DNA from: a virus
Taxonomy: Duplodnaviria; Heunggongvirae; Uroviricota; Caudoviricetes
IMG/VR virus record: IMGVR_UViG_2706796742_000001
Location: 23,511 to 87,510 of that record
Reading direction: 5' to 3' (one strand)
DNA: 64,000 bases
Part shown: positions 19,963-38,857 of the stretch, piece by piece
Layout: the number at the start of each line of letters is the position of its first letter
Position numbering within the stretch: position 1 is the first letter of the stretch
Notes under the pieces: model-generated
What the model saw: only the letters and a program-made list of their open reading frames with translations
What the model was told of the DNA's origin: nothing
The model's database searches: none
Made by a program: the position numbers and the translations under genes

Positions 19963-27996
<8,034 letters not shown>

Positions 27997-29211: not shown

Positions 29212-31554
29212 ATGGTAGATTACAAGTTGAGTGAATTAAACTCAATCGACACAATCCGTTCAGACGACCTTCTTCATGTCAGAGTTAAAAAGAGACCTGA
29301 AATGCTGGGTGATGAAGACCGTCGAATGACCTATCAAGATTTCTTAGCATCTTTTAAACTTGAAAGATTTGTTCAGATTGCTGGTAGTACTATGACTGGT
29401 GACTTAGGGATTGTTAAGTTACTTTATGGTGGTAAGTCAGTATTTGACCCAACAGGTTCTTCTGAGATTACTATTGGGGATGTTTTAAAGACTTTTAAAA
29501 TTAACGCAAATGGTCTTAAGCTAACCATTGCAGATGCTTCGAGGTCAGCAACTGTTTATCATACTCTTAATAAACCAAGCCCTAATGAACTTGGGATGAG
29601 AACTAATGAAGAGAATGATGCAAGATATGCAAGGCTTGCTGTCACAAACACATTCTCTGGAACTCAGAACATTCAAGGTGATGTTAACTTACTTCGCCTT
29701 AGAAACCAAAATGCAAACAATGCACAATATATTGAAGGTGTAAACCTAGATGGTTCAGCTAGATGGTTGGTTGGTATTAGTAAAAATGGCTCTGATGCAG
29801 TGCAACTGTACAATAATAAATATGACTCAGCTTTGACTATTGCAAGCAATGTCTCTGTTAATAAGTCTTTAGCAATCACTGGTCAAGTTCAACCATCAGA
29901 TTTCTCTAACTTAGATGCTAGATACTTTACTCAGACAGCAGCTAATCAGAGATTTGCACAGTTAGCTGGCAATAACACTTTTAGTGGCTCGAACACATTT
30001 ATTAACAGACTAAGTGTTTTCAAAAAAGATGGTGAGGCAATTAGGCTACAGAATAACAATGCTACACGGCCATTGTACATTATGGCGATTGATAGCGAAG
30101 GTGCCAAAAGATGGTACGTTGGTAATACTGATACAAGTGATAACGTAGTTCTAGAAAACTACAAAACTGGTGGAAAAATTACTGTAGGTACAAGTGTTAA
30201 TATCAATAAAACACTAACTGTAACTGGTCAAGTTCAACCTTCTGATTGGACTAATATTGATTCAAGATATATTCCGGTAGGAACTTTGAGTAATCTTGCT
30301 AAACTTAATGTTAAGAATACTTTTTCTCAAGGCCAGATTATCAATGCTGATGGGGAAGGTCTTAAGATTCAAGGTGTAAAAGATACTGGTGGATTGTTCT
30401 TGCAAGGTTGTACTTCTTCTGGTGCTAAGAAGTGGTTTATGGGTACTAATGATGCAGGTAACTTCACTATCAGGGAGATGGTGCTAGGCACTGAACTGTC
30501 TCTTAGGGAGAACTATATTCAGTTTAATAAGAATGTGACAATCAATGGTCAAGTTCAACCTTCAGATTTCTCTAACTTAGATGCCAGATACTACGTTAAA
30601 TCGGCAACCGATGCGAAGTACATCTGGTCAGCAGTCAGGGAGACAGTAAGAGAGGAGGATGGTGGTGTAGCTTGGAATAAACCTTCAGGAATCTATCTGT
30701 GGATGCGCAAGGGTGGTGGGTCAAACCGTTTAGTCTCGCACATGTTCGTTAATACGGGAGCATCAACACCTGCTGCACAATTGATGTTTGATTATAGAAA
30801 TGGTGGGATGTGGTACAGAACAGCCAGAGACGCACATGGTTTTGAGCAGGACTGGGCTAAGGTTTATACAGAGGCTCAGAAGCCAACCCCTTCAGAAATT
30901 GGTGCATACACTAAAGCTGAAACTGACCAGAAGATTGCAACAGCAATTACTAATTCTACAGACCTTAATAAAATCTATCCAGTAGGTATTGTAACGTGGT
31001 TTAACAGTAATGTTGACCCTAATACTGCACTTCCTGGATTAACTTGGACGTACCTGAACAATGGTGTTGGCAGAACTATTAGAATTGCAGCAGCAAATGG
31101 TTCAGATGTTGCTACAACTGGTGGTTCAGACTCTGTAACGTTATCTGTTGGTAACTTGCCTTCACACACTCATAGTTTCTCTGCGACTACTTCATCATTT
31201 GACTATGGTACAAAGACCACTAACAGTACTGGTGCTCATACACACTCGGTCAGTGGTTCTACTAACAACACTGGTGCTCATACACACACTGTAGGTGGTC
31301 GTTACGGTGGTGACTCCATCGGTGGTAAACAGCGTGTTCAGGTATCAGGAACAAACCAAGTTTCAAGCTCTGCTGGTGCTCACGCTCACACTGTGTCTGG
31401 TACTGCTGCTTCTGCTGGTGCTCATGCTCACACAGTAGGTATTGGTGCTCACAGCCACACAGTATCTGGTAACACAGGTGGTACAGGTTCTGGTTCAGCG
31501 TTTAGTGTTACTAATCAGTTCTACAAGTTAATGGCTTGGGTAAGGACTGCTTAA
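29212..31554 (+). CDS. large tail fiber protein with His-rich C-terminal tip
   Basis: 780 aa; internal repeats (LAITGQVQPSD x3) and C-terminal HxH module GAHTHSVSG ... GAHAHTVGIGAHSHTVSG. Confidence 0.7.
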   Translation: MVDYKLSELNSIDTIRSDDLLHVRVKKRPEMLGDEDRRMTYQDFLASFKLERFVQIAGSTMTGDLGIVKLLYGGKSVFDPTGSSEITIGDVLKTFKINANGLKLTIADASRSATVYHTLNKPSPNELGMRTNEENDARYARLAVTNTFSGTQNIQGDVNLLRLRNQNANNAQYIEGVNLDGSARWLVGISKNGSDAVQLYNNKYDSALTIASNVSVNKSLAITGQVQPSDFSNLDARYFTQTAANQRFAQLAGNNTFSGSNTFINRLSVFKKDGEAIRLQNNNATRPLYIMAIDSEGAKRWYVGNTDTSDNVVLENYKTGGKITVGTSVNINKTLTVTGQVQPSDWTNIDSRYIPVGTLSNLAKLNVKNTFSQGQIINADGEGLKIQGVKDTGGLFLQGCTSSGAKKWFMGTNDAGNFTIREMVLGTELSLRENYIQFNKNVTINGQVQPSDFSNLDARYYVKSATDAKYIWSAVRETVREEDGGVAWNKPSGIYLWMRKGGGSNRLVSHMFVNTGASTPAAQLMFDYRNGGMWYRTARDAHGFEQDWAKVYTEAQKPTPSEIGAYTKAETDQKIATAITNSTDLNKIYPVGIVTWFNSNVDPNTALPGLTWTYLNNGVGRTIRIAAANGSDVATTGGSDSVTLSVGNLPSHTHSFSATTSSFDYGTKTTNSTGAHTHSVSGSTNNTGAHTHTVGGRYGGDSIGGKQRVQVSGTNQVSSSAGAHAHTVSGTAASAGAHAHTVGIGAHSHTVSGNTGGTGSGSAFSVTNQFYKLMAWVRTA

Positions 31555-31633
31555 TACCTTGTTGACTGATTATTAAGATGGTGTTAATATTCTTTATAGG
31601 TATTCTCACCATCTTGGCTGGTAAGGTGATTAA

Positions 31634-31828
31634 ATGCCTACAATCCTAGCAATTCTTCTAAAAAATCTAGGTAGCTTCTTCTGGAAACTCATTTTATCCC
31701 TTCTAAGTGAATACATGATTGAGAAAGTGTTCTTTAGGCTTGCAAGATACCTTGCGAGTAAAACAGACACACCTATTGATGATGAGTTCGTAGATAACTT
31801 AGAAAAAGCTTTTAAGGGGGAGAAATAA
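31634..31828 (+). CDS. small membrane protein (possible holin)
   Basis: 64 aa with hydrophobic N-terminal segment; sits after the tail fibers. Confidence 0.3.
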   Translation: MPTILAILLKNLGSFFWKLILSLLSEYMIEKVFFRLARYLASKTDTPIDDEFVDNLEKAFKGEK

Positions 31829-32200
31829 ATGAAGTGGCTAGAGGAAGCTTTTAAAAATAATATTGGTGCAATTGTAGTTGGTATTTTTAGTGTTATTGGG
31901 ACATTTACCACGATGCAGGTTTCAAGTGGTAAACAAGAAGTGTCTGTCACAACGAAATTACAGCAGTTAGATAGTTATTCAAAAAGTAACTACTCAGCTA
32001 TTCGTGATTTACAATCTGACATGAGACTACTCCAGCTAGGGATGGAGAACCAGAAAGTCCAGTTAGAGAATGTTAAGGGTGAGAACGCAAAACTTACCAA
32101 AACCCTTGATAAATTCTCTGATAGCGTGAACAATCTGGCTCAATCAGTATCAGCCCTCCAAGCTATTACTGAGAAGAACACAAAGAATACTGAAAAATAA
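31829..32200 (+). CDS. membrane-anchored coiled-coil protein (possible spanin-like lysis protein)
   Basis: 123 aa; N-terminal hydrophobic segment IGAIVVGIFSVIGTF then heptad-like Q/L/E/K-rich sequence. Confidence 0.35.
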   Translation: MKWLEEAFKNNIGAIVVGIFSVIGTFTTMQVSSGKQEVSVTTKLQQLDSYSKSNYSAIRDLQSDMRLLQLGMENQKVQLENVKGENAKLTKTLDKFSDSVNNLAQSVSALQAITEKNTKNTEK

Positions 32201-32206
32201 AATTTT

Positions 32207-32237
32207 AAGGCTCCCGTAAAAAGGAGCCTTTTTTTGT
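32207..32237. terminator. bidirectional intrinsic terminator between converging gene blocks
   Basis: AAGGCTCC-CGTAAAAA-GGAGCCTT followed by TTTTTTTGTTTT; A-rich on the opposite side. Confidence 0.7.
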
Positions 32238-32239
32238 TT

Positions 32240-33139
32240 TCACTTACCTACTGATAGAGGTGCTTCAATCTTCCCTGCATGTTGGTAGTTGTTAATGCCA
32301 CCAATAAAATCACTTGCAGTGAGATGTTTTAAGTCACTTAAAGTGTTAAGTGGGACACCAATCTCAAAAGTTGGTGCATGGAACTCTTCATTGTTCATCA
32401 GTTCATAAACCTGCTTCATATGGTTCTGATAAATCTGAGTATCTCCAAAGACACCTATCAAGTACCGTGGAGTGTATCCAGTCATCTTACAAAGAACTTC
32501 CAGAATAAAACCGTAAGATGCAATATTAAACGGAAGTCCTAAAAAGGTGTCTACTGAACGCTGATACCATTGTAAGTCAACTTCACCCTCGTTAGTAATA
32601 TAAATCTGAAACAGAACATGACAAGGTGCTAAAGCCATTGAGTTTGCTGCAATATCTGCTGCATTCCAAGCATTAACAAGCATGTAACGGTCTGTGATAT
32701 CACCCTTCATCTTTGTTACTAAGGTCTCTAACTGGTCTACAACACAACCATTATGACCTTCAAAGTTTCTCCACTGAACCCCGTAGATTCTTCCACCTGC
32801 ATCTTCTAACCAATCTTGTTCAGAAGAATAATTAGAGCTTAACCAGCGTTTAAAATCATCTGACCAGATAGTCCAACGTTCCCCATCATTTTCACCCCAA
32901 GTACGATAACGGAGTTCACCCAGCTTATTCTCTCCGTTCAGGAACCATAGAGCTTCCCCAATAACTTGCCGTGTAAACACCTGTTTAGATGTTAAGAGTG
33001 GGAAACCAGTTCGCATATCAAAACGAAACTGAGGTGGAGCAAATGCAGAGATAACATCTCCAGTTCGTGTAGTACGCAGTTCACCAACGGATAAAACATG
33101 GCTCAGGATATTTTTGTAACTTGTATCTGCTTGTGACAT
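32240..33139 (-). CDS. thyA: thymidylate synthase
   Basis: active-site region MALAPCHVLFQ and LGLPFNIASY match ThyA signatures; 299 aa. Confidence 0.85.
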   Translation of the reverse strand: MSQADTSYKNILSHVLSVGELRTTRTGDVISAFAPPQFRFDMRTGFPLLTSKQVFTRQVIGEALWFLNGENKLGELRYRTWGENDGERWTIWSDDFKRWLSSNYSSEQDWLEDAGGRIYGVQWRNFEGHNGCVVDQLETLVTKMKGDITDRYMLVNAWNAADIAANSMALAPCHVLFQIYITNEGEVDLQWYQRSVDTFLGLPFNIASYGFILEVLCKMTGYTPRYLIGVFGDTQIYQNHMKQVYELMNNEEFHAPTFEIGVPLNTLSDLKHLTASDFIGGINNYQHAGKIEAPLSVGK

Positions 33140-33140
33140 A

Positions 33141-33686
33141 TCAAAAGTGTCCTTTTACTTGTGGAACATAAATTTCAAAAGTTGCTTTACCATCCTCTGA
33201 TGGTTTTGACTGTACCTTTGTAAATACACGGTTATCATACAACTTATCAAAGAAGTTTTCAAAAGGTAAATGCACAGTGGCCTCTTCAGTAACTTTATGA
33301 AAGACTGTATGGAAAACTACATCAGCATACGGTAAAGCATTGACAAGGACACCTGCACCACCAATTACAAAGACATCTTCATCAATAGAGCTATCAAGAT
33401 ACTTCAAAAATGCTCCAAATGACTCTTTACTGGCTTTAGCATACATCACATCATCTTTTCCAAAGTCTATGCCTAAGTATGGTACAGAATTTGTTAAGAT
33501 GAGGTTTGCACGTTCTGGTAAAGGTTTACTACCCAGAGTCTTAAAAGTTTCGTTACCCATCACTACTAAGTTATTTTTAGTGAGTCTCTTAAACTCTTGC
33601 ATGTCCTGTTTATGTCGAGGCCACGGCATACCAGTTGGAGTACCAAACTCACCATTTTCACCACTTGCAAAGATTAATTTAATCAT
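33141..33686 (-). CDS. dihydrofolate reductase
   Basis: N-terminus MIKLIFASGENGEFGTPTGMPWP, LVVMGNETFKTLG; 181 aa adjacent to thyA. Confidence 0.8.
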   Translation of the reverse strand: MIKLIFASGENGEFGTPTGMPWPRHKQDMQEFKRLTKNNLVVMGNETFKTLGSKPLPERANLILTNSVPYLGIDFGKDDVMYAKASKESFGAFLKYLDSSIDEDVFVIGGAGVLVNALPYADVVFHTVFHKVTEEATVHLPFENFFDKLYDNRVFTKVQSKPSEDGKATFEIYVPQVKGHF

Positions 33687-33943
33687 TTTGTAAACCCTTT
33701 CTTAATAAACCAGTTGATAACATTCTTCACAGCTTTATTGCTATGGTAGATTAAGTGTGGTGTAGGTTGGTATGAACCGTAAGCCCAGAAAGCAATAATT
33801 TCACTACACCCTGTACATCTTGTACTCTCTTCCGCAATATGACCGTTGACTATTTCACTTACCTCACCTTGTAAGTCTGTACATCCACAATGTGGACAAC
33901 GGATAGGTGCTCCGTCAGACTCATAGCAGTGTTCAATTTTCAT
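33683..33943 (-). CDS. small Cys-rich (zinc-ribbon-like) protein
   Basis: 86 aa with CPHCGC ... CTGC pairs. Confidence 0.4.
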   Translation of the reverse strand: MKIEHCYESDGAPIRCPHCGCTDLQGEVSEIVNGHIAEESTRCTGCSEIIAFWAYGSYQPTPHLIYHSNKAVKNVINWFIKKGFTK

Positions 33944-34459
33944 TTATTTAACCTCAAAAACTGGCTCAAGAGCCAATATAAAATCTACACAGTCATCTTC
34001 TTCATCCAGAATACCATCAAAGTTCTTAGGAACGAAGTCGAAGAGGCTCATAGAGTAGCGGTCAGAAGTAATCCTGATAGTTCCTCCGATATTCTCTACA
34101 GTTAATATTGTACGGCTTTCTGTTACCTCACTAAGAAGATTACTTACAAAGTCATCTAAGAAGTGCTTCATCAGTGATTTAAAACCTTTAGGGTAATCTG
34201 TACCAGAGTATGTTTCAATCTGAGGTACAAGCTTAACATTTATACTAGTCTTTGTTAAGAATGTGTTAGAGAACATACTATCAGGTAACTTACAAACAGT
34301 CTTTCCAGTACCTTCATGTTCAATCTCAACAAAACCAGCTTCATCGCCACATGTAACTATTTTAAAAGATGCTTCATTATCACCCTGTGAAGCCATAAAC
34401 TTTTTAAGCATCACTTTAAGGAAATCTGCATGAGCATCTTGTAAGTAGATATCAATCAT
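33944..34459 (-). CDS. hypothetical protein
   Basis: 171-aa ORF. Confidence 0.45.
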   Translation of the reverse strand: MIDIYLQDAHADFLKVMLKKFMASQGDNEASFKIVTCGDEAGFVEIEHEGTGKTVCKLPDSMFSNTFLTKTSINVKLVPQIETYSGTDYPKGFKSLMKHFLDDFVSNLLSEVTESRTILTVENIGGTIRITSDRYSMSLFDFVPKNFDGILDEEDDCVDFILALEPVFEVK

Positions 34460-34472
34460 AGTTAATCACCTA

Positions 34473-34832
34473 TTATGGGAACAAACATTTAATGTCATCG
34501 TTTTTGAAAACGAAGCTTGTGTAGTTGTGACCGTCAACATCCAACCAAACAGCCTGAACATCTACACCATCAAGATTGTGGTAAAGCTCTTTGATGAAGT
34601 GGTCTTTCACAATCTGGCTGCTAGTTGTTTCCAGCTTAATGTTTGAGATTGCTGAACCTACAGCCATATAACCCATGACTCGCTTCTTCTCAGTATGCTT
34701 AATCTTACCATCTTTGTAAGCCATAATGAGATTGGAGAGAATCTTTACACCATAATACTTTTCAAGGTGAGTAGGTGCACCATAAAAGCCTAATGCGAAG
34801 TTTTCAGAGTGGATAATGTTTTCACGTTTCAT
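34473..34832 (-). CDS. hypothetical protein
   Basis: 119-aa ORF. Confidence 0.45.
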   Translation of the reverse strand: MKRENIIHSENFALGFYGAPTHLEKYYGVKILSNLIMAYKDGKIKHTEKKRVMGYMAVGSAISNIKLETTSSQIVKDHFIKELYHNLDGVDVQAVWLDVDGHNYTSFVFKNDDIKCLFP

Positions 34833-34833
34833 A

Positions 34834-35163
34834 TTAATCTGCCAACCTTAAATTAAAATTAACACCAAATTTTTCACATACTTCCAACATAAACTCAAGA
34901 GAGACATTACCAGTGAGGTTGATTATGTTGGATACACGAGCCTGAGAGATACCACAAATTTTAGCAACTTGCTCTTGAGAAAGACCTCTGGATTTAATCT
35001 CTCTCTTAAAACGATGTGCAACGAAATCTCTCATTTCGTCTACATCCATTGGACAAATATAACTTTCCATTTCAGCCTCTCTGTCAGCCTCCCAATCATC
35101 TTGTGGAGCATAAGGGTCAAAAACCTCATTCATCTTTCTTCTTCCGTTTTCGTGAAGTGTCAA
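34834..35163 (-). CDS. helix-turn-helix (XRE-like) DNA-binding protein
   Basis: GLSQEQVAKICGISQARVSNIINLTGN resembles an HTH_XRE motif; acidic N-terminal half. Confidence 0.5.
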   Translation of the reverse strand: MTLHENGRRKMNEVFDPYAPQDDWEADREAEMESYICPMDVDEMRDFVAHRFKREIKSRGLSQEQVAKICGISQARVSNIINLTGNVSLEFMLEVCEKFGVNFNLRLAD

Positions 35164-35338
35164 TCAATGAATCTATGTTTGTAGCTCTAACCTTTTCACG
35201 TTCATCGTTAAGATAATCATCAAGAGCCTTCTCAATCTGTGAATCATCTTGACAGATAACTGTAAAGACTGTAAAGCCATCTGTATCATCAATTATCTTA
35301 CCATAACCGCTTCTGGGATGTAACTTTTTAAGAGCCAT
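35126..35338 (-). CDS. hypothetical small protein
   Basis: 70-aa ORF overlapping the HTH gene. Confidence 0.3.
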   Translation of the reverse strand: MALKKLHPRSGYGKIIDDTDGFTVFTVICQDDSQIEKALDDYLNDEREKVRATNIDSLIDTSRKRKKKDE

Positions 35339-35339
35339 A

Positions 35340-35723
35340 TCAAATACCTGTGCAGCTTCTGTTTTCTAAGAAATACTCAACACCATACATAGCTTTTTGC
35401 ATCAAATCTTCTTTAAACTGGATGCGATGATTGAGCATAGCTTGTACATCAATATCCTCATGGTGCTTCTCTTTAATGTTTGCAGATTGCAGGAAATACT
35501 CTGCAAGAACGCGATACTGATAGTCAGTTACCTTATCAGTCATCTCTGTTAAAGACTCTTCAGAGATTGGTTTAAGCAACTCACCATTAGATATAGCAAC
35601 ACCTTTTACAATCTGGCAAGTGTCTTCTGGAACACCTGACAAGTCCACATTTGGGAGTTCTGTTGCATTGACTGGTAAATTCATTGCCATAACCATTGCA
35701 GCAGCTAATAAAATCTTTTTCAT
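35340..35723 (-). CDS. secreted/periplasmic protein with signal peptide
   Basis: N-terminus MKKILLAAAMVMAMNLPVNA looks like a Sec signal peptide; 127 aa. Confidence 0.5.
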   Translation of the reverse strand: MKKILLAAAMVMAMNLPVNATELPNVDLSGVPEDTCQIVKGVAISNGELLKPISEESLTEMTDKVTDYQYRVLAEYFLQSANIKEKHHEDIDVQAMLNHRIQFKEDLMQKAMYGVEYFLENRSCTGI

Positions 35724-35767
35724 AATGACCTCAAAGTTATATTAAATTTTGTATTACGTTGAGTATA

Positions 35768-35796
35768 AAAATAAGCTATAACACCTGACTTGTCAA
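35768..35796 (-). promoter_or_regulatory. sigma70-like promoter with flanking operator-like inverted repeat
   Basis: minus-strand TTGACA at 35796-35791 then TATTTT after 17 nt; perfect 12-bp inverted repeat AATAAGCTATAA/TTATAGCTTATT (35770-35781, 35803-35814) brackets the -35. Confidence 0.4.
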
Positions 35797-35861
35797 CAGA
35801 TTTTATAGCTTATTTGGCAGATTTTTTATAAGGCTACTGCCATCCTTCCATACCATACTAA

Positions 35862-36045
35862 ACCCGACCTTACCTCACCTTACCTAACCTTACCCCAACC
35901 TATCCTACCAGACCAAACCTTATTAAAAGACCCTGTTTAAAGACCTTTTAAAAAGGTAAGTCTCATTTTAATGTAGCTGAGACTAACTACCCGCACCGAA
36001 CCTAACCGGACCCGACCTGACATAACCGGACCTAGCCTTGCATTG
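35862..36045. repeat. 10-bp-periodic ACC-rich tandem repeat field
   Basis: ACCTTACC x3 at 35867-35893 plus degenerate units, then CCGAACCTAA/CCGGACCCGA/CCTGACATAA/CCGGACCTAG at ~35990-36030. Confidence 0.6.
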
Positions 36046-36153
36046 CCGTACATCACTTAAAAATCCTCTTAGAAGACTCTTAAGTGATGCTGGTGAGTAC
36101 CCGTTGGTTTATGCTGCTCAGTATACTCACCAAATTTTCTATGTCAACAACTT

Positions 36154-37254
36154 TTATTCATAATCCCTAATAACTAACCCAACAGGGAACTGTAAAGAAC
36201 CCTTACGAGTCATCTTCTGGAACTGAACCGTTAAAGGTTTCCCGATAAACTCTTCAGGATGCTCAGCAAGATACTGTTTCTTCTCATGGGTAGTCTTCCA
36301 TGAGACATCCACAAAGACGTTAGGAAGAGTCTCTACAACGAACTTGCCATGACCACGTTTATCGGTCTTTACACCAGTAACTTTAAACTCTTCAGTGTGC
36401 ATCTTCTTGTGCTTAATCAAGAAGTATGAACGGTGACAACACTCATAGAAGGAGTCTTCAGAGATTGAGCGGTACATTGCACCTTCAAACTGAGCTTCAA
36501 CCCACTTATCATGGGCTTCATCAAACTCTTCCCAAGAATTTACACGACGAGACTTAACAGGGACAACTTTACAGCCGTCTCTGAAGTCATTCAATGGTGA
36601 AGTCTCAATAATATCTCTACGCTCAGGCCACGTCATAGTACTGTCACAGATATCGTACCAGTAGAACTGGAGTAGATGTCGGTCTGGATTGTCAGCATTC
36701 TTAATCATAGACACAATATCTTCTAAGTCCCAACCATGAGCATAAATCTCACCATCAAAGTCTTCGACTTGTGGATGTAATTTAAGCAACAAAAGCAAAT
36801 CTGGGATTAGTTCTGCTGGGACGTTGTAAATAGTATTCTCACGAGAATAAGCCGTGAAGCTAACTAAATCAGCGTCTCTTGAAATTCTACAACGAACACC
36901 ATCAAGCTTCGGTTGAGCATCAGCAGGGAACTTCAGATACTTTGCATGGCTAACCTTTGCAGCATCATGAGCAAGCTGTACACCTACCTTCTCAGTATTC
37001 TGTGCAGACTCTTTTGTGTAAGCATAACCTTTACGGTCAACTTGCTTTTTATACTTAGCAGCAACTTCAAAGAGAGCTTGCTGTTCAGCGTTACGCTCAT
37101 TCTTTTTACCGATGTTCTTAGGCTCTGCTGTATACTCTTCAAACATCATCTTGCCATTCTCTTTACCGTAGGTTGTAATAACTTTGTCACCTACAGCAAC
37201 ACATGACCAGACGTTGAAAGAGCCGTCTTTATTTTGTTTGTACAGAATTGTCAT
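36154..37254 (-). CDS. ATP-dependent DNA ligase
   Basis: motif I KLDGVRC (K-x-D-G-x-R); 366 aa. Confidence 0.7.
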   Translation of the reverse strand: MTILYKQNKDGSFNVWSCVAVGDKVITTYGKENGKMMFEEYTAEPKNIGKKNERNAEQQALFEVAAKYKKQVDRKGYAYTKESAQNTEKVGVQLAHDAAKVSHAKYLKFPADAQPKLDGVRCRISRDADLVSFTAYSRENTIYNVPAELIPDLLLLLKLHPQVEDFDGEIYAHGWDLEDIVSMIKNADNPDRHLLQFYWYDICDSTMTWPERRDIIETSPLNDFRDGCKVVPVKSRRVNSWEEFDEAHDKWVEAQFEGAMYRSISEDSFYECCHRSYFLIKHKKMHTEEFKVTGVKTDKRGHGKFVVETLPNVFVDVSWKTTHEKKQYLAEHPEEFIGKPLTVQFQKMTRKGSLQFPVGLVIRDYE

Positions 37255-37448
37255 TTTTTAACCTCTGAGTGATACCAAGTGTAACAAGCATTACATGCGT
37301 AAAGCTCTAAGTCATTTTTATCTGGTTTATGGAAACAGTTTGACCCACAACGACACCGGAATAGCTTACCATCAACACGAAGAATGAATGTTTCAAGCTC
37401 ACCATCTTCTGTAAGAACTGCGTTCTTAAATTTATCTTCTACAGTCAT
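37251..37448 (-). CDS. small zinc-ribbon protein
   Basis: 65 aa with CRCGSNC ... CNAC. Confidence 0.4.
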   Translation of the reverse strand: MTVEDKFKNAVLTEDGELETFILRVDGKLFRCRCGSNCFHKPDKNDLELYACNACYTWYHSEVKK

Positions 37449-37651
37449 TTTCTCTTACCACCAATCTCTACGTCGATAACCTGAACATCACCAGCAACAT
37501 CGAACTTATGGATGATGCTTTCCACAGTGTAAGTCCAACCCTCGATTCGAACTAACTCACCTTCTCGTGGGACGATTGGGTTACGTTGAGCTACGGTTGT
37601 AGTGGAGTGAACAACATCATAACAGTGGATATAGTTTACTAGGACTTCCAT
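37445..37651 (-). CDS. hypothetical small protein
   Basis: 68-aa ORF with overlapping stop/start. Confidence 0.4.
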   Translation of the reverse strand: MEVLVNYIHCYDVVHSTTTVAQRNPIVPREGELVRIEGWTYTVESIIHKFDVAGDVQVIDVEIGGKRK

Positions 37652-37660
37652 ATCTTCACC

Positions 37661-37915
37661 TTAAAAGAATAAGTCAGATGCTTTTGGGTTTCTAAAACTC
37701 ATGCAGTTTTGAAGCATGGCTTCATTGTACCCATCTTGACAAACTACGTAGAGTTTATCGAAAGTTTCTTTTGATACTGGGGAGACTGATAAATCTTGGC
37801 ATACACTAAGATACCATTCGTAATCTAAGCCTCTGCTCCAAGCATCAGCGATTAGGGCTGTAGCTTTGTCTTTGCTTCTGATAACTTCATCAGACTTTTC
37901 AATTTTACTGTTCAC
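37661..37915 (-). CDS. hypothetical protein
   Basis: 84-aa ORF. Confidence 0.4.
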   Translation of the reverse strand: MNSKIEKSDEVIRSKDKATALIADAWSRGLDYEWYLSVCQDLSVSPVSKETFDKLYVVCQDGYNEAMLQNCMSFRNPKASDLFF

Positions 37916-38077
37916 GATGTTCTACCTCTCTGTACGTTCGTCGATAGTATATAATAAGCTGTGCTAACTCGTTGCTTTTAACATCTGAACGTAGCAGTTG
38001 CCAATCAAAACCTTTACCGACTCTTCCATATAAGCTAAATAATTTTACTTTGCGTTTCATTTTGGTACTCCCAATAC

Positions 38078-38290
38078 TCAGAGGACAATACTAATACGTT
38101 CACCCTTGAGGACCCCTGTACGGTCTCTTGCAATCTTACCATCAACAATAAGGATATGCGCAGACTTTAAAGATTCACTATTAAAACCTTTTACGAACTT
38201 ACTAGGCATCACCACAATAAGCATCTCCTGAATCAACTCTGGAGTATAGCAATTGTCGTGAAGTTGCTGGATAACGTCTGCAAGTTTCAT
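38078..38290 (-). CDS. hypothetical protein
   Basis: 70-aa ORF. Confidence 0.35.
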   Translation of the reverse strand: MKLADVIQQLHDNCYTPELIQEMLIVVMPSKFVKGFNSESLKSAHILIVDGKIARDRTGVLKGERISIVL

Positions 38291-38341
38291 ATAACCTCCT
38301 ATATAAGATATTGTATAAGGTACTCTTCCCTGAGCACCTTG

Positions 38342-38857
38342 TCAAGATAGTTTTGCAAACTCTCCGTGGAGTTTTATAGCAGCTTCACAGTAAGCTTTAT
38401 GGGCTTCTTCTTCTGTTGTGTACGTCCCGATATGTATAGTCTTACCATTATGGTTAATCTGGGCTTTCCACTTACCAGACTTACTTCTACTTGTACCTTT
38501 TAAGTTTTTTGATGTTCTAGGTTGCCTCCTATTAGACATGTTCTGTTCTTTTGTGGCCTCTCTAAGATTGTCCCAAGCATTATTCAAACCGTTCCCGTCT
38601 TTGTGGTCAATATGATTGTCAGGCCACTTACCTGTCATCCAGAACCAAGCAATTCGGTGATTGCCTGTCCTGTATCCTAAAATCTGGGTTTGCATATACA
38701 CACCAGACCTTGTGCGCTTGATTGTACCAGCCTGTCTTCCAATTACCACCCTACTGCTATGTGGAGGTCTGCCAATCCAAGTCAAGACCCCTGTTTCGGG
38801 GTCGTAGTCTAACCAAGATTTTAACTGTTCATGTGTGAATCCACAATCTCTCATCAA
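38342..38857 (-). CDS. HNH homing endonuclease (free-standing)
   Basis: HIDHKDGNGLNNAWDNLREATKEQN is an HNH motif; start overlaps polymerase stop. Confidence 0.7.
   Translation of the reverse strand: MMRDCGFTHEQLKSWLDYDPETGVLTWIGRPPHSSRVVIGRQAGTIKRTRSGVYMQTQILGYRTGNHRIAWFWMTGKWPDNHIDHKDGNGLNNAWDNLREATKEQNMSNRRQPRTSKNLKGTSRSKSGKWKAQINHNGKTIHIGTYTTEEEAHKAYCEAAIKLHGEFAKLS

Follow-up and report, generated by a model that had tools for sequence, protein, structure and literature searches.

The closest described relatives of the locus studied here are open reading frames (ORFs) 82-87 of phage Felix O1, whose genome paper (Whichard et al. 2010, PMC3185647) describes ORF85 as an HTH_3 transcriptional regulator and ORF82 as an RB49p188 homologue, and genes g32-g37 of phage Bas63, for which knockout fitness has been reported in the PhageMaP preprint (doi 10.1101/2024.10.10.617714). 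We analyzed a stretch of 64,000 nucleotides (nt) from a virus record (IMG/VR IMGVR_UViG_2706796742_000001, positions 23,511 to 87,510; hereafter the window) in which six small leftward ORFs, O1 to O6, occupy positions 33683-35723 between the thymidylate synthase/DHFR genes and a ligase gene. An earlier sequence-only reading of the window had located these six ORFs correctly, but it had taken them for an accessory cluster of host-interaction or anti-defence genes. In our analysis, they probably represent the promoter-proximal half of a fixed, eight-gene delayed-early/middle backbone operon, with mixed functions and not as one system. The cluster is ordinary and largely known already: it is annotated in Felix O1 and its knockout data are published.

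A conserved six-gene block

Region 33000-36400 of the window shares 94-97% nucleotide identity with more than 200 genomes of Felixounavirus (Ounavirinae, Felix O1-like myoviruses), the top match being Salmonella phage BPSELC-1, and protein sequences identical to O1, O2, and O6 have been deposited for Salmonella phage vB_SPuM_SP116. Judged by these sequence matches, the window is a Felixounavirus with BPSELC-1 and SP116 as nearest phages. All six ORFs lie on the minus strand and correspond one to one, in the same order and with the same sizes, to Felix O1 ORFs 82-87 (89-100% protein identity): O1 (33683-33943, 86 aa; ORF82, Bas63 g32), O2 (33944-34459, 171 aa; ORF83, g33), O3 (34473-34832, 119 aa; ORF84, g34), O4 (34834-35133, 99 aa from ATG; ORF85, g35), O5 (35126-35338, 70 aa; ORF86, g36), and O6 (35340-35723, 127 aa; ORF87, g37). 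For O4, an alternative TTG start at 35163 would give 109 aa, but the ATG start (99 aa) is the one annotated in more than 200 records, and it produces an 8-nt overlap between O4 and O5. A plausible ribosome-binding site precedes each of the six ORFs, each has a PHROG match (E 1e-27 to 1e-89), and pairwise ratios of nonsynonymous to synonymous substitution (dN/dS) against three relatives range from 0 to 0.21, compared with 0.03-0.08 for the neighbouring enzymes; all six are under purifying selection. Reverse-transcription PCR (RT-PCR) in Felix O1 has also detected transcripts for the O2, O3, and O6 homologues (PMC3185647), and on these combined grounds we take the ORFs as real genes. The earlier statement that none of them matched a recognised family holds for function, although not for families, as O4 belongs to HTH_3 and all six fall into named PHROGs.

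To survey their presence, each protein was searched with tblastn against 50,697 phage records, using as control the DNA polymerase, found in 301 records at E<=1e-100. O2, O4, O5, and O6 were each present in 257-259 records (by host name, Escherichia 120, Salmonella 74, Shigella 23, 'Felixounavirus' 14, Citrobacter 11, and Enterobacteria 9), the 257 records with O6 being Ounavirinae without exception. These counts equal the polymerase control for the Escherichia-, Shigella-, Citrobacter-, and Felixounavirus-named records and amount to 74 of 79 for the Salmonella-named ones. O3 occurred in 299 of the 301 polymerase-positive records, with Erwinia and Hafnia phages added, and was the only one of the six with matches in Erwinia records, while O1 reached 363 records and extended to unrelated coliphages. 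Gene order is kept in Moogle, SUSP2, EP1, Henu12, and KMM2, which span three genera; Erwinia phage Tian, the Kolesnikvirus phage examined, retains O3 alone, in a different neighbourhood. Across the records searched, O1, O2, O4, O5, and O6 are thus shared by all of Felixounavirus, Mooglevirus, and Suspvirus, and O3 extends through the entire subfamily.

The rates at which the genes diverge are very uneven. Between genera, protein identity is 87-90% for the ligase, 78-81% for ThyA, 71-78% for O4, 66-71% for O3, 65-67% for O1, 59-69% for DHFR, and 53-63% for O5, but only 35-42% for O2 and 32-33% for O6, which are thus the fastest-diverging genes (53-90% for their neighbours). Within the genus, O3, O4, and O5 are 95-100% conserved.

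This distribution bears directly on the proposal that the entire block constitutes an accessory island of swappable host-interaction and anti-defence genes lodged between conserved replication genes. Patchy presence among close relatives, the mark of such an island, was not observed (257-363 records per gene against 301 for the polymerase control): the comparison across related phages that the sequence-only reading had itself suggested finds the six genes, identically ordered, in practically all genomes of three genera, and O3 across the subfamily. They are therefore core genes, the outcome which that reading had named, in combination with assigned housekeeping functions, as speaking against it; assigned functions were not found. 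Some features do recall an island, namely the spread of O1 across unrelated phages, a two-gene cassette gained and lost in the adjoining ligase-O6 gap, and one or more extra genes inserted between O3 and O2 in Moogle- and SUSP-type phages (Mooglevirus, Suspvirus). The true presence/absence polymorphism is, however, that of the ligase-O6 gap and the O3/O2 junction, not of the six genes, and the presence/absence data largely refute the accessory-island view for the block as a whole.

Operon signals

Downstream of O1 lie frd (DHFR; 33141-33686, minus strand; Bas63 gene 31), whose start codon overlaps the O1 stop codon, and td (thymidylate synthase, ThyA; 32240-33139, minus strand; Bas63 gene 30), the distal genes of the same putative transcription unit. 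From O6 to td, starts and stops abut or overlap. A sigma70-like promoter, P2 (TTGACA-17-TATTTT, 35796-35768, minus strand), is located directly upstream of O6, and no promoter or terminator of comparable quality was found between O6 and td. The unit ends at a bidirectional intrinsic terminator (32207-32230) that faces the convergent holin gene and is the t79/t80 element listed in the Felix O1 paper (PMC3185647). These signals suggest that O6-O5-O4-O3-O2-O1-frd-td are read as one transcript, from P2 to the terminator, which would be a fixed part of the Felix O1-like genome backbone. A stronger promoter, P1 (TTGACA-16-TATACT, 11 of 12 consensus positions; 36147-36120, minus strand), lies right after the ligase stop codon and shares with P2 an upstream context, AAAAG...TTGACA, found at many promoters of the window. 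In Felix O1, RT-PCR placed the transcript peak of ORF81 at 10 min and those of ORFs 80, 83, 84, 87, and 88 at 25 min (PMC3185647).

Knockout fitness in Bas63

PhageMaP scored pooled barcoded Bas63 knockouts, with three replicates per score, on a scale where neutral genes lie at about +0.7 to +1.3 and structural genes at about -2 to -3.5 (doi 10.1101/2024.10.10.617714). Its gene numbers are Bas63 locus tags, so that 30 is td, 31 frd, 32-37 O1-O6, and 39 the ligase. Loss of O4 was costly in all four hosts, with scores of -1.17 to -1.25 in S17-1, -1.37 to -1.47 in MG1655, -1.30 to -1.44 in BW25113, and -1.40 to -1.47 in DH10B. The O3 knockout was similarly depleted in the same four hosts (-1.00 to -1.16, -1.19 to -1.34, -1.06 to -1.27, and -0.87 to -1.02, respectively), as was that of O5 (-0.81 to -0.86, -0.96 to -1.13, -1.05 to -1.37, and -0.51 to -1.17). 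O1 was required in S17-1 (-0.70 to -0.82), MG1655 (-1.19 to -1.25), and BW25113 (-1.01 to -1.08), all of them K-12 hosts, with scores of only -0.12 to -0.17 in DH10B, which is restriction-deficient. Knockouts of O2 gave -0.12 to +0.11, -0.03 to +0.02, +0.02 to +0.04, and +0.16 to +0.31, and those of O6 gave -0.41 to +0.08, -0.09 to +0.08, -0.01 to +0.32, and -0.31 to -0.98, again in the order S17-1, MG1655, BW25113, and DH10B. In this screen, O3, O4, and probably O5 are therefore needed in every host tested, and O2 and O6 can be lost under laboratory conditions. Polarity cannot explain the O1, O3, and O4 phenotypes because frd and td scored mildly (-0.8 to +0.4) and the knockout of the first gene, O6, was neutral.

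These phenotypes complete the case concerning the accessory island. The host-dependent requirement for O1 and the dispensable, fast-diverging O2 and O6 would suit it, whereas the need for O3, O4, and O5 in all hosts, coupled with their near-identity within the genus, would not. None of the six is among the defence counters or triggers that PhageMaP validated clonally, and in the part of its data compared here, two of 12 defence backgrounds (TerY-P and AVAST type 4), the g32-g37 scores match those in defence-free hosts (doi 10.1101/2024.10.10.617714). PADLOC, moreover, gave matches to generic helix-turn-helix (HTH) models only. We consider an island of this kind improbable: the host-interaction or anti-defence role once proposed for the cluster is supported for O1 and plausible for O2 and O6, but wrong for the cluster as a unit, given near-control tblastn counts, preserved gene order, and the depletion of O1, O3, O4, and O5 knockouts.

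A different explanation would make the six proteins auxiliary housekeeping factors in DNA replication or nucleotide metabolism, serving the frd/td/ligase/polymerase machinery as subunits, chaperones, or regulators. It would agree with their apparent co-transcription with frd and td inside the replication gene block, with a middle timing like that of ligase and td, with the need for O3 and O4 in all hosts, and with the Erwinia phages, where O3, between the genes for a band-7 protein and a tRNA nucleotidyltransferase, is still in the replication region. Yet Bas63 can almost do without frd and td but needs O3 and O4, which means that O3 and O4 cannot merely serve frd and td. In addition, O6 is predicted to be exported, the requirement for O1 depends on the host, and no enzyme or replication family was found to resemble any of the six proteins. 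The database names 'NTP hydrolase' (O3), 'heme-degrading enzyme-like' (O5), and 'trifunctional NAD biosynthesis/regulator' (O4) were rejected, as they have no Pfam or NCBIfam support. A general housekeeping role consequently seems doubtful to us.

O4, O3, and O5, putative regulators

In O4, an XRE/Cro-C1 HTH domain comes after an acidic N-terminal stretch of 40 residues; an XRE-like HTH and an acidic N-terminus had been noted by the sequence-only reading. O4 is a member of Pfam HTH_3 (PF01381; 43.0 bits against a cut-off of 23, E 4.6e-11), residues 53-103 of the 109-aa form matching model positions 2-52 of 55, and it also matches phrog_1373, 'transcriptional regulator' (E 6.6e-27). With this five-helix domain, O4 is like other XRE/Cro-C1 regulators, including controller proteins and the HigA and PezA antitoxins. 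It differs from them in belonging to a strictly virulent phage, in its acidic N-terminal extension, in having no recognisable dimerisation or sensor domain, and in being needed in all hosts. A PDB match to a 'CAP REPEAT' chain was rejected as a composition artefact with no aligned stretch.

The HTH domain of O4 resembles those of PezA, HipB-type, and HigA antitoxins and of restriction-modification controller proteins (E 1e-5 to 1e-4), and O5 lies upstream with an 8-nt overlap, the gene order of higBA and hicAB. One could accordingly imagine that O5 and O4 form a toxin-antitoxin-like or controller pair, in which translation of the small O5 would be coupled to that of an XRE antitoxin or C-protein and which the phage would have co-opted against toxin-antitoxin or restriction-modification systems of the host. 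However, the likeness of O4 to antitoxins, controller proteins, and sigma region 4 is in all cases sub-threshold and generic to the HTH, and O5, an acidic-to-neutral protein of 70 aa, matches no toxin family in Pfam, NCBIfam, or PADLOC. Both knockouts are depleted, although losing a toxin gene would normally have no cost. Such a pair is very unlikely.

O3 carries the conserved motifs FYGxPTxxEK and RxxGYxxxGSxxSNxKL. Among 1.84 billion representative proteins, a profile search retrieved five genuine clusters, none of them outside Ounavirinae; two giant Ig-repeat proteins that also appeared were rejected as relatives, since Pfam identifies them as repetitive surface proteins. An AlphaFold2 model built on 12 sequences, including three homologues of 37-39% identity, reached a predicted local distance difference test (pLDDT) score of 91.8 and a predicted template modelling (pTM) score of 0.85; nine close homologues alone gave a pLDDT of 45.8, and it was the addition of the three distant ones that rescued the prediction. 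The model shows, in order, an N-terminal hairpin, a helix (22-40), two further helices (58-69 and 73-85), and a hairpin (92-110). Neither Foldseek of the model against PDB nor a PDB sequence and profile search detected a significant neighbour or match, and in BFVD the model found the Erwinia homologue and two uncharacterised phage proteins (template modelling (TM) scores of 0.65-0.70). Residues 22-110 (three helices and a beta-hairpin wing) superpose marginally, over 45-55 residues at 1.9-2.5 A, on winged-helix domains, namely the histone H5 globular domain (1hst), the ORC2 winged helix (5c8h), and SSV1 F-93 (1tbx). The modelled O3 may at best have a winged-helix-like core. The structural and remote-homology searches that had been advised thus yielded the HTH_3 assignment of O4 and a confident model of O3, although not a significant fold neighbour for the latter in PDB.

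O5 belongs to phrog_4473 and ends in an invariant basic C-terminal tail, RATNxDSLIDTSRKRxKKDE; no match above noise was obtained in Pfam, NCBIfam, or PADLOC. O4 and O3, possibly together with O5, are probably nucleic-acid-binding regulators of the transcription or replication programme of the phage.

O1, a candidate anti-restriction protein

The Lar/RalR restriction-alleviation protein of the Rac prophage and ECs_2282 are the described proteins to which O1 bears most likeness, as a small phage protein built on a CP-x-CG ... C-x2-C zinc ribbon. The family of O1 is that of RB49p188 (phrog_2993), with the signature C-x2-C ... C-x2-C-x7-[FY][WF]AYGxYxP. Its four cysteines are invariant in eight diverse homologues and form a CxxC...CxxC ribbon of about 30 residues, in agreement with the zinc-ribbon-like ORF first noticed. 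Homologues exist in the T4-like Krischvirus and Tegunavirus, in Nonagvirus, and in T7-like phages, and in Krischvirus JSE, Tegunavirus fHe-Yen9-01, and Nonagvirus JenP1 they sit amid early hypothetical genes.

In the curated models, O1 scores 16.9 bits against Lar TIGR03655 (cut-off 39.6; E 0.006) and 20 bits against the ECs_2282 CxxC model NF047912 (cut-off 37), and Pfam Lar_restr_allev gives no match at E<=1. Four of the eight family members match TIGR03655 (best E 0.0025) and all eight match NF047912 (best E 2.3e-5), always below threshold. With hhalign, only the zinc ribbon aligns to RalR (residues 8-38 of RalR, 42.6% probability). O1 further differs from RalR in its conserved [FY]WAYGxYxP motif and C-terminal helix. 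A relationship to tandem C2H2 zinc fingers, indicated by PDB profile matches, was rejected as an artefact of CxxC spacing in repeats.

As with Lar/RalR, the O1 knockout phenotype varies with the restriction genotype of the host. The authors of the Bas63 work label the homologue 'restriction alleviation protein lar*', remark on the DH10B exception, and suggest evasion of Type IV restriction (doi 10.1101/2024.10.10.617714). O1 might neutralise a host nuclease or defence that is missing from DH10B, in the manner of a restriction-alleviation protein. Sequence and published knockouts together indicate that it may be a horizontally shared, host-dependent candidate anti-restriction protein, not a demonstrable member of the Lar family.

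O6 and O2, dispensable and fast-diverging

Among small proteins of virulent phages, Spackle (Sp), Imm, and RI of T4 are expressed early, exported to the envelope, and act in superinfection exclusion or lysis inhibition. By analogy, O6 could be comparable to them, as it is small, expressed early or in the middle period by a virulent myovirus, equipped with an N-terminal export signal and two conserved cysteines, and dispensable in single-infection laboratory assays. The comparison with Spackle and RI is one of sequences alone, and O6 has no detectable sequence homology to solved structures: at E<=10, the matches among all PDB chains, in single-sequence and profile searches, were to unrelated proteins alone (yeast SSO2 with the profile).

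Inspection of its n-, h-, and c-regions, as opposed to a trained predictor, reveals a Sec-type signal peptide in O6 (MKK / ILLAAAMVMAMNL / PVNA|T) with a hydrophobic core at residues 4-14 and cleavage after VNA20, which agrees with the signal-peptide protein of the earlier reading. This segment is the sole hydrophobic window of the protein (Kyte-Doolittle 1.6-1.9) and has no lipobox cysteine. In the Moogle- and SUSP-type homologues, the cleavage site is AVA|M or ASA|M. The invariant Cys36 and Cys124 lie near the two ends of the mature protein, which has an isoelectric point (pI) of 4.6. O6 belongs to phrog_4332 and is 32-33% identical to the Moogle and SUSP2 homologues. It would be exported to the periplasm by means of a cleavable Sec signal peptide and is probably disulphide-bonded, and it might act at the level of the envelope, for example in superinfection exclusion or in the control of lysis timing.

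In Shigella phage vB_SflM_004 (L014 953-1333), the O6 homologue is chimeric, with a Felix-type signal peptide (19 of 20 residues) and a Moogle-type mature domain, which points to recombination inside the gene. The vB_SflM_004 record has frameshifts in DHFR, ThyA, and O3 and is of doubtful quality.

O2 (phrog_4422) is an acidic (pI 4.5) protein, predicted to be cytoplasmic, and it has the highest dN/dS of the cluster (0.11-0.21). Its homologue is broken in the SUSP2 record (L005 6166-6683, frameshift) and in the Moogle record (L004 5853-6368, stop at codon 17) and intact in EP1, Henu12, and KMM2. The idea that O2 is eroding in other genera was abandoned in view of these three intact copies and of possible sequencing error, which has to be considered because the vB_SflM_004 record is frameshifted even in DHFR and ThyA; the two breaks reflect either a dispensable gene that is truly eroding or errors in sequencing. 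A beta-alpha-beta-beta-beta pattern and matches with E of about 0.1-0.5 gave rise to the idea of a VOC/bleomycin-resistance fold (Ble-Sh E 0.099; 1byl E 0.4), which was discarded when the matches vanished with a five-sequence profile, and the PDB sequence and profile search gave no supported relative of O2. O2 would be best described as an acidic, dispensable, and fast-diverging cytoplasmic protein.

The O2 stop codon (TAA) directly precedes the O1 ATG in the same frame (33941-33946), and a 90%-identity protein cluster that contains O2 also includes members of 86 aa, the length of O1. Databases may contain read-through or fused O2-O1 variants. In Moogle-type phages, O2 and O1 overlap by 4 nt, out of frame.

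The ligase-O6 gap

The other flank of the cluster is the ligase gene (36154-37254, minus strand; Bas63 gene 39), separated from O6 by a gap element (35724-36153, minus strand) composed of P1, perfectly conserved hairpins, two degenerate arrays of GGTNN pentamers, and P2, in this order. The sequence and copy number of the GGTNN arrays differ between phages. The gap is modular, with units that comprise 'GGTATGGGTAGTTA', hairpin 1, hairpin 2, and a (GGTNN)n linker and that fall into two types, A and B. Hairpin 1 (7 bp) pairs in 100% of 56 cells from eight distinct copies, compared with 14-39% of cells in slid-register controls, and types A and B differ at three of its seven pairs by compensatory changes of both bases. 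The putative 353-nt transcript from P1 has a folding energy of -113 kcal/mol, against -84 +/- 4.9 for shuffled sequences (z = -5.9). An Rfam search of 31500-38500 found no family besides one chance-level match. The core motif of the gap occurs once in the window, and in IMG/VR it is confined to contigs of 51-94 kb, the majority of which measure 82-94 kb; Ounavirinae genomes have about 82-93 kb. In other phages, the gap module flanks the two-gene cassette that has been gained and lost.

At the O6 end, P2 is flanked by a perfect 13-nt inverted repeat, AAATAAGCTATAA / TTATAGCTTATTT (35769-35781 and 35803-35815). We rejected this repeat as a general operator, since the 64-kb window contains a single copy. 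Felix-type phages, Moogle, SUSP2, and vB_SflM_004 share the P2 region at 100% identity, despite 58-68% divergence in the neighbouring O6 protein. The gap element may represent a non-coding RNA, an element with a regulatory or origin-like role (with a G-rich transcript from a strong promoter), or a recombination module.

Strength of the proposed operon

Several points weigh against an operon of mixed functions as we propose it. Our case for co-transcription is built on sequence signals and a coarse RT-PCR time course instead of transcript maps. PhageMaP is a pooled screen, published as a preprint, in which no gene of the cluster was clonally validated. The variances of the O5 knockout are very large (0.8-1.8) and suggest position-dependent effects; damage to the overlapping O4 start may be the cause of its phenotype. 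As for O1, it falls below the curated cut-offs of Lar and ECs_2282, and its [FY]WAYGxYxP motif is absent from RalR. Since DH10B is unlike the other hosts at many genes (recA1, endA1, galU, loss of e14, and others), no target can be pinpointed from the O1 phenotype, and its persistence in BW25113 and S17-1, which have no functional EcoKI restriction, excludes the classical Lar target. Biochemical function has been demonstrated for none of the six proteins, and every activity named for them is one that we infer. The ORFs, their conservation and purifying selection, the operon signals, the HTH domain of O4, the signal-peptide features of O6, the knockout phenotypes, and the transcript timing are documented here or in the literature, and with them the operon of mixed functions remains the probable explanation.

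Other features of the window

Just upstream of the ligase gene, a cysteine-rich ORF of 65 aa (37251-37448, minus strand) is identical to the C-terminus of Bas63 g40 across 47 comparable residues. The g40 knockout is strongly depleted (-2 to -3.4), and g40 is a trigger of the hhe defence system (doi 10.1101/2024.10.10.617714). Between the DNA polymerase gene and a run of small genes, a 171-aa ORF (38342-38857, minus strand) combines an HNH-type motif with a C-terminal AP2-like region, and its product resembles a homing endonuclease. In several relatives, the polymerase matches in two pieces, which suggests mobile insertions near this position. The end of a 780-aa tail fibre gene (31000-31554, plus strand) encodes repeated C-terminal histidine motifs, G-A-H-[TA]-H-[ST]-V; nucleotide repeats have been described in Felix O1 tail fibre genes 76 and 77 (PMC3185647).

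Implications

Felix O1-like phages find wide use in Salmonella typing, biocontrol, and therapy. They are reported to have neither an RNA polymerase of their own nor a recognised modifier of the host polymerase. It is tempting, though decidedly speculative, to imagine that O3, O4, and O5 act as a switch timing Felix O1-like expression or replication, with O3 as a new DNA-binding fold exclusive to Ounavirinae and the P2 inverted repeat and the repeat module as the cis sites, and that O1 founds a non-Lar family of zinc-ribbon anti-restriction proteins. Where such phages are engineered, payloads would seem safe in O2, O6, and the ligase-O6 gap, and O3, O4, and O5 are best kept intact.

The value of our results is mostly negative, in that this block is not a hypervariable anti-defence island and the genuinely variable site is located beside it. 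They also sort the six genes into classes, namely putative regulators that are required in all hosts (two or three genes), a host-dependent anti-restriction candidate, and two dispensable, fast-evolving genes, the product of one of which is probably secreted.

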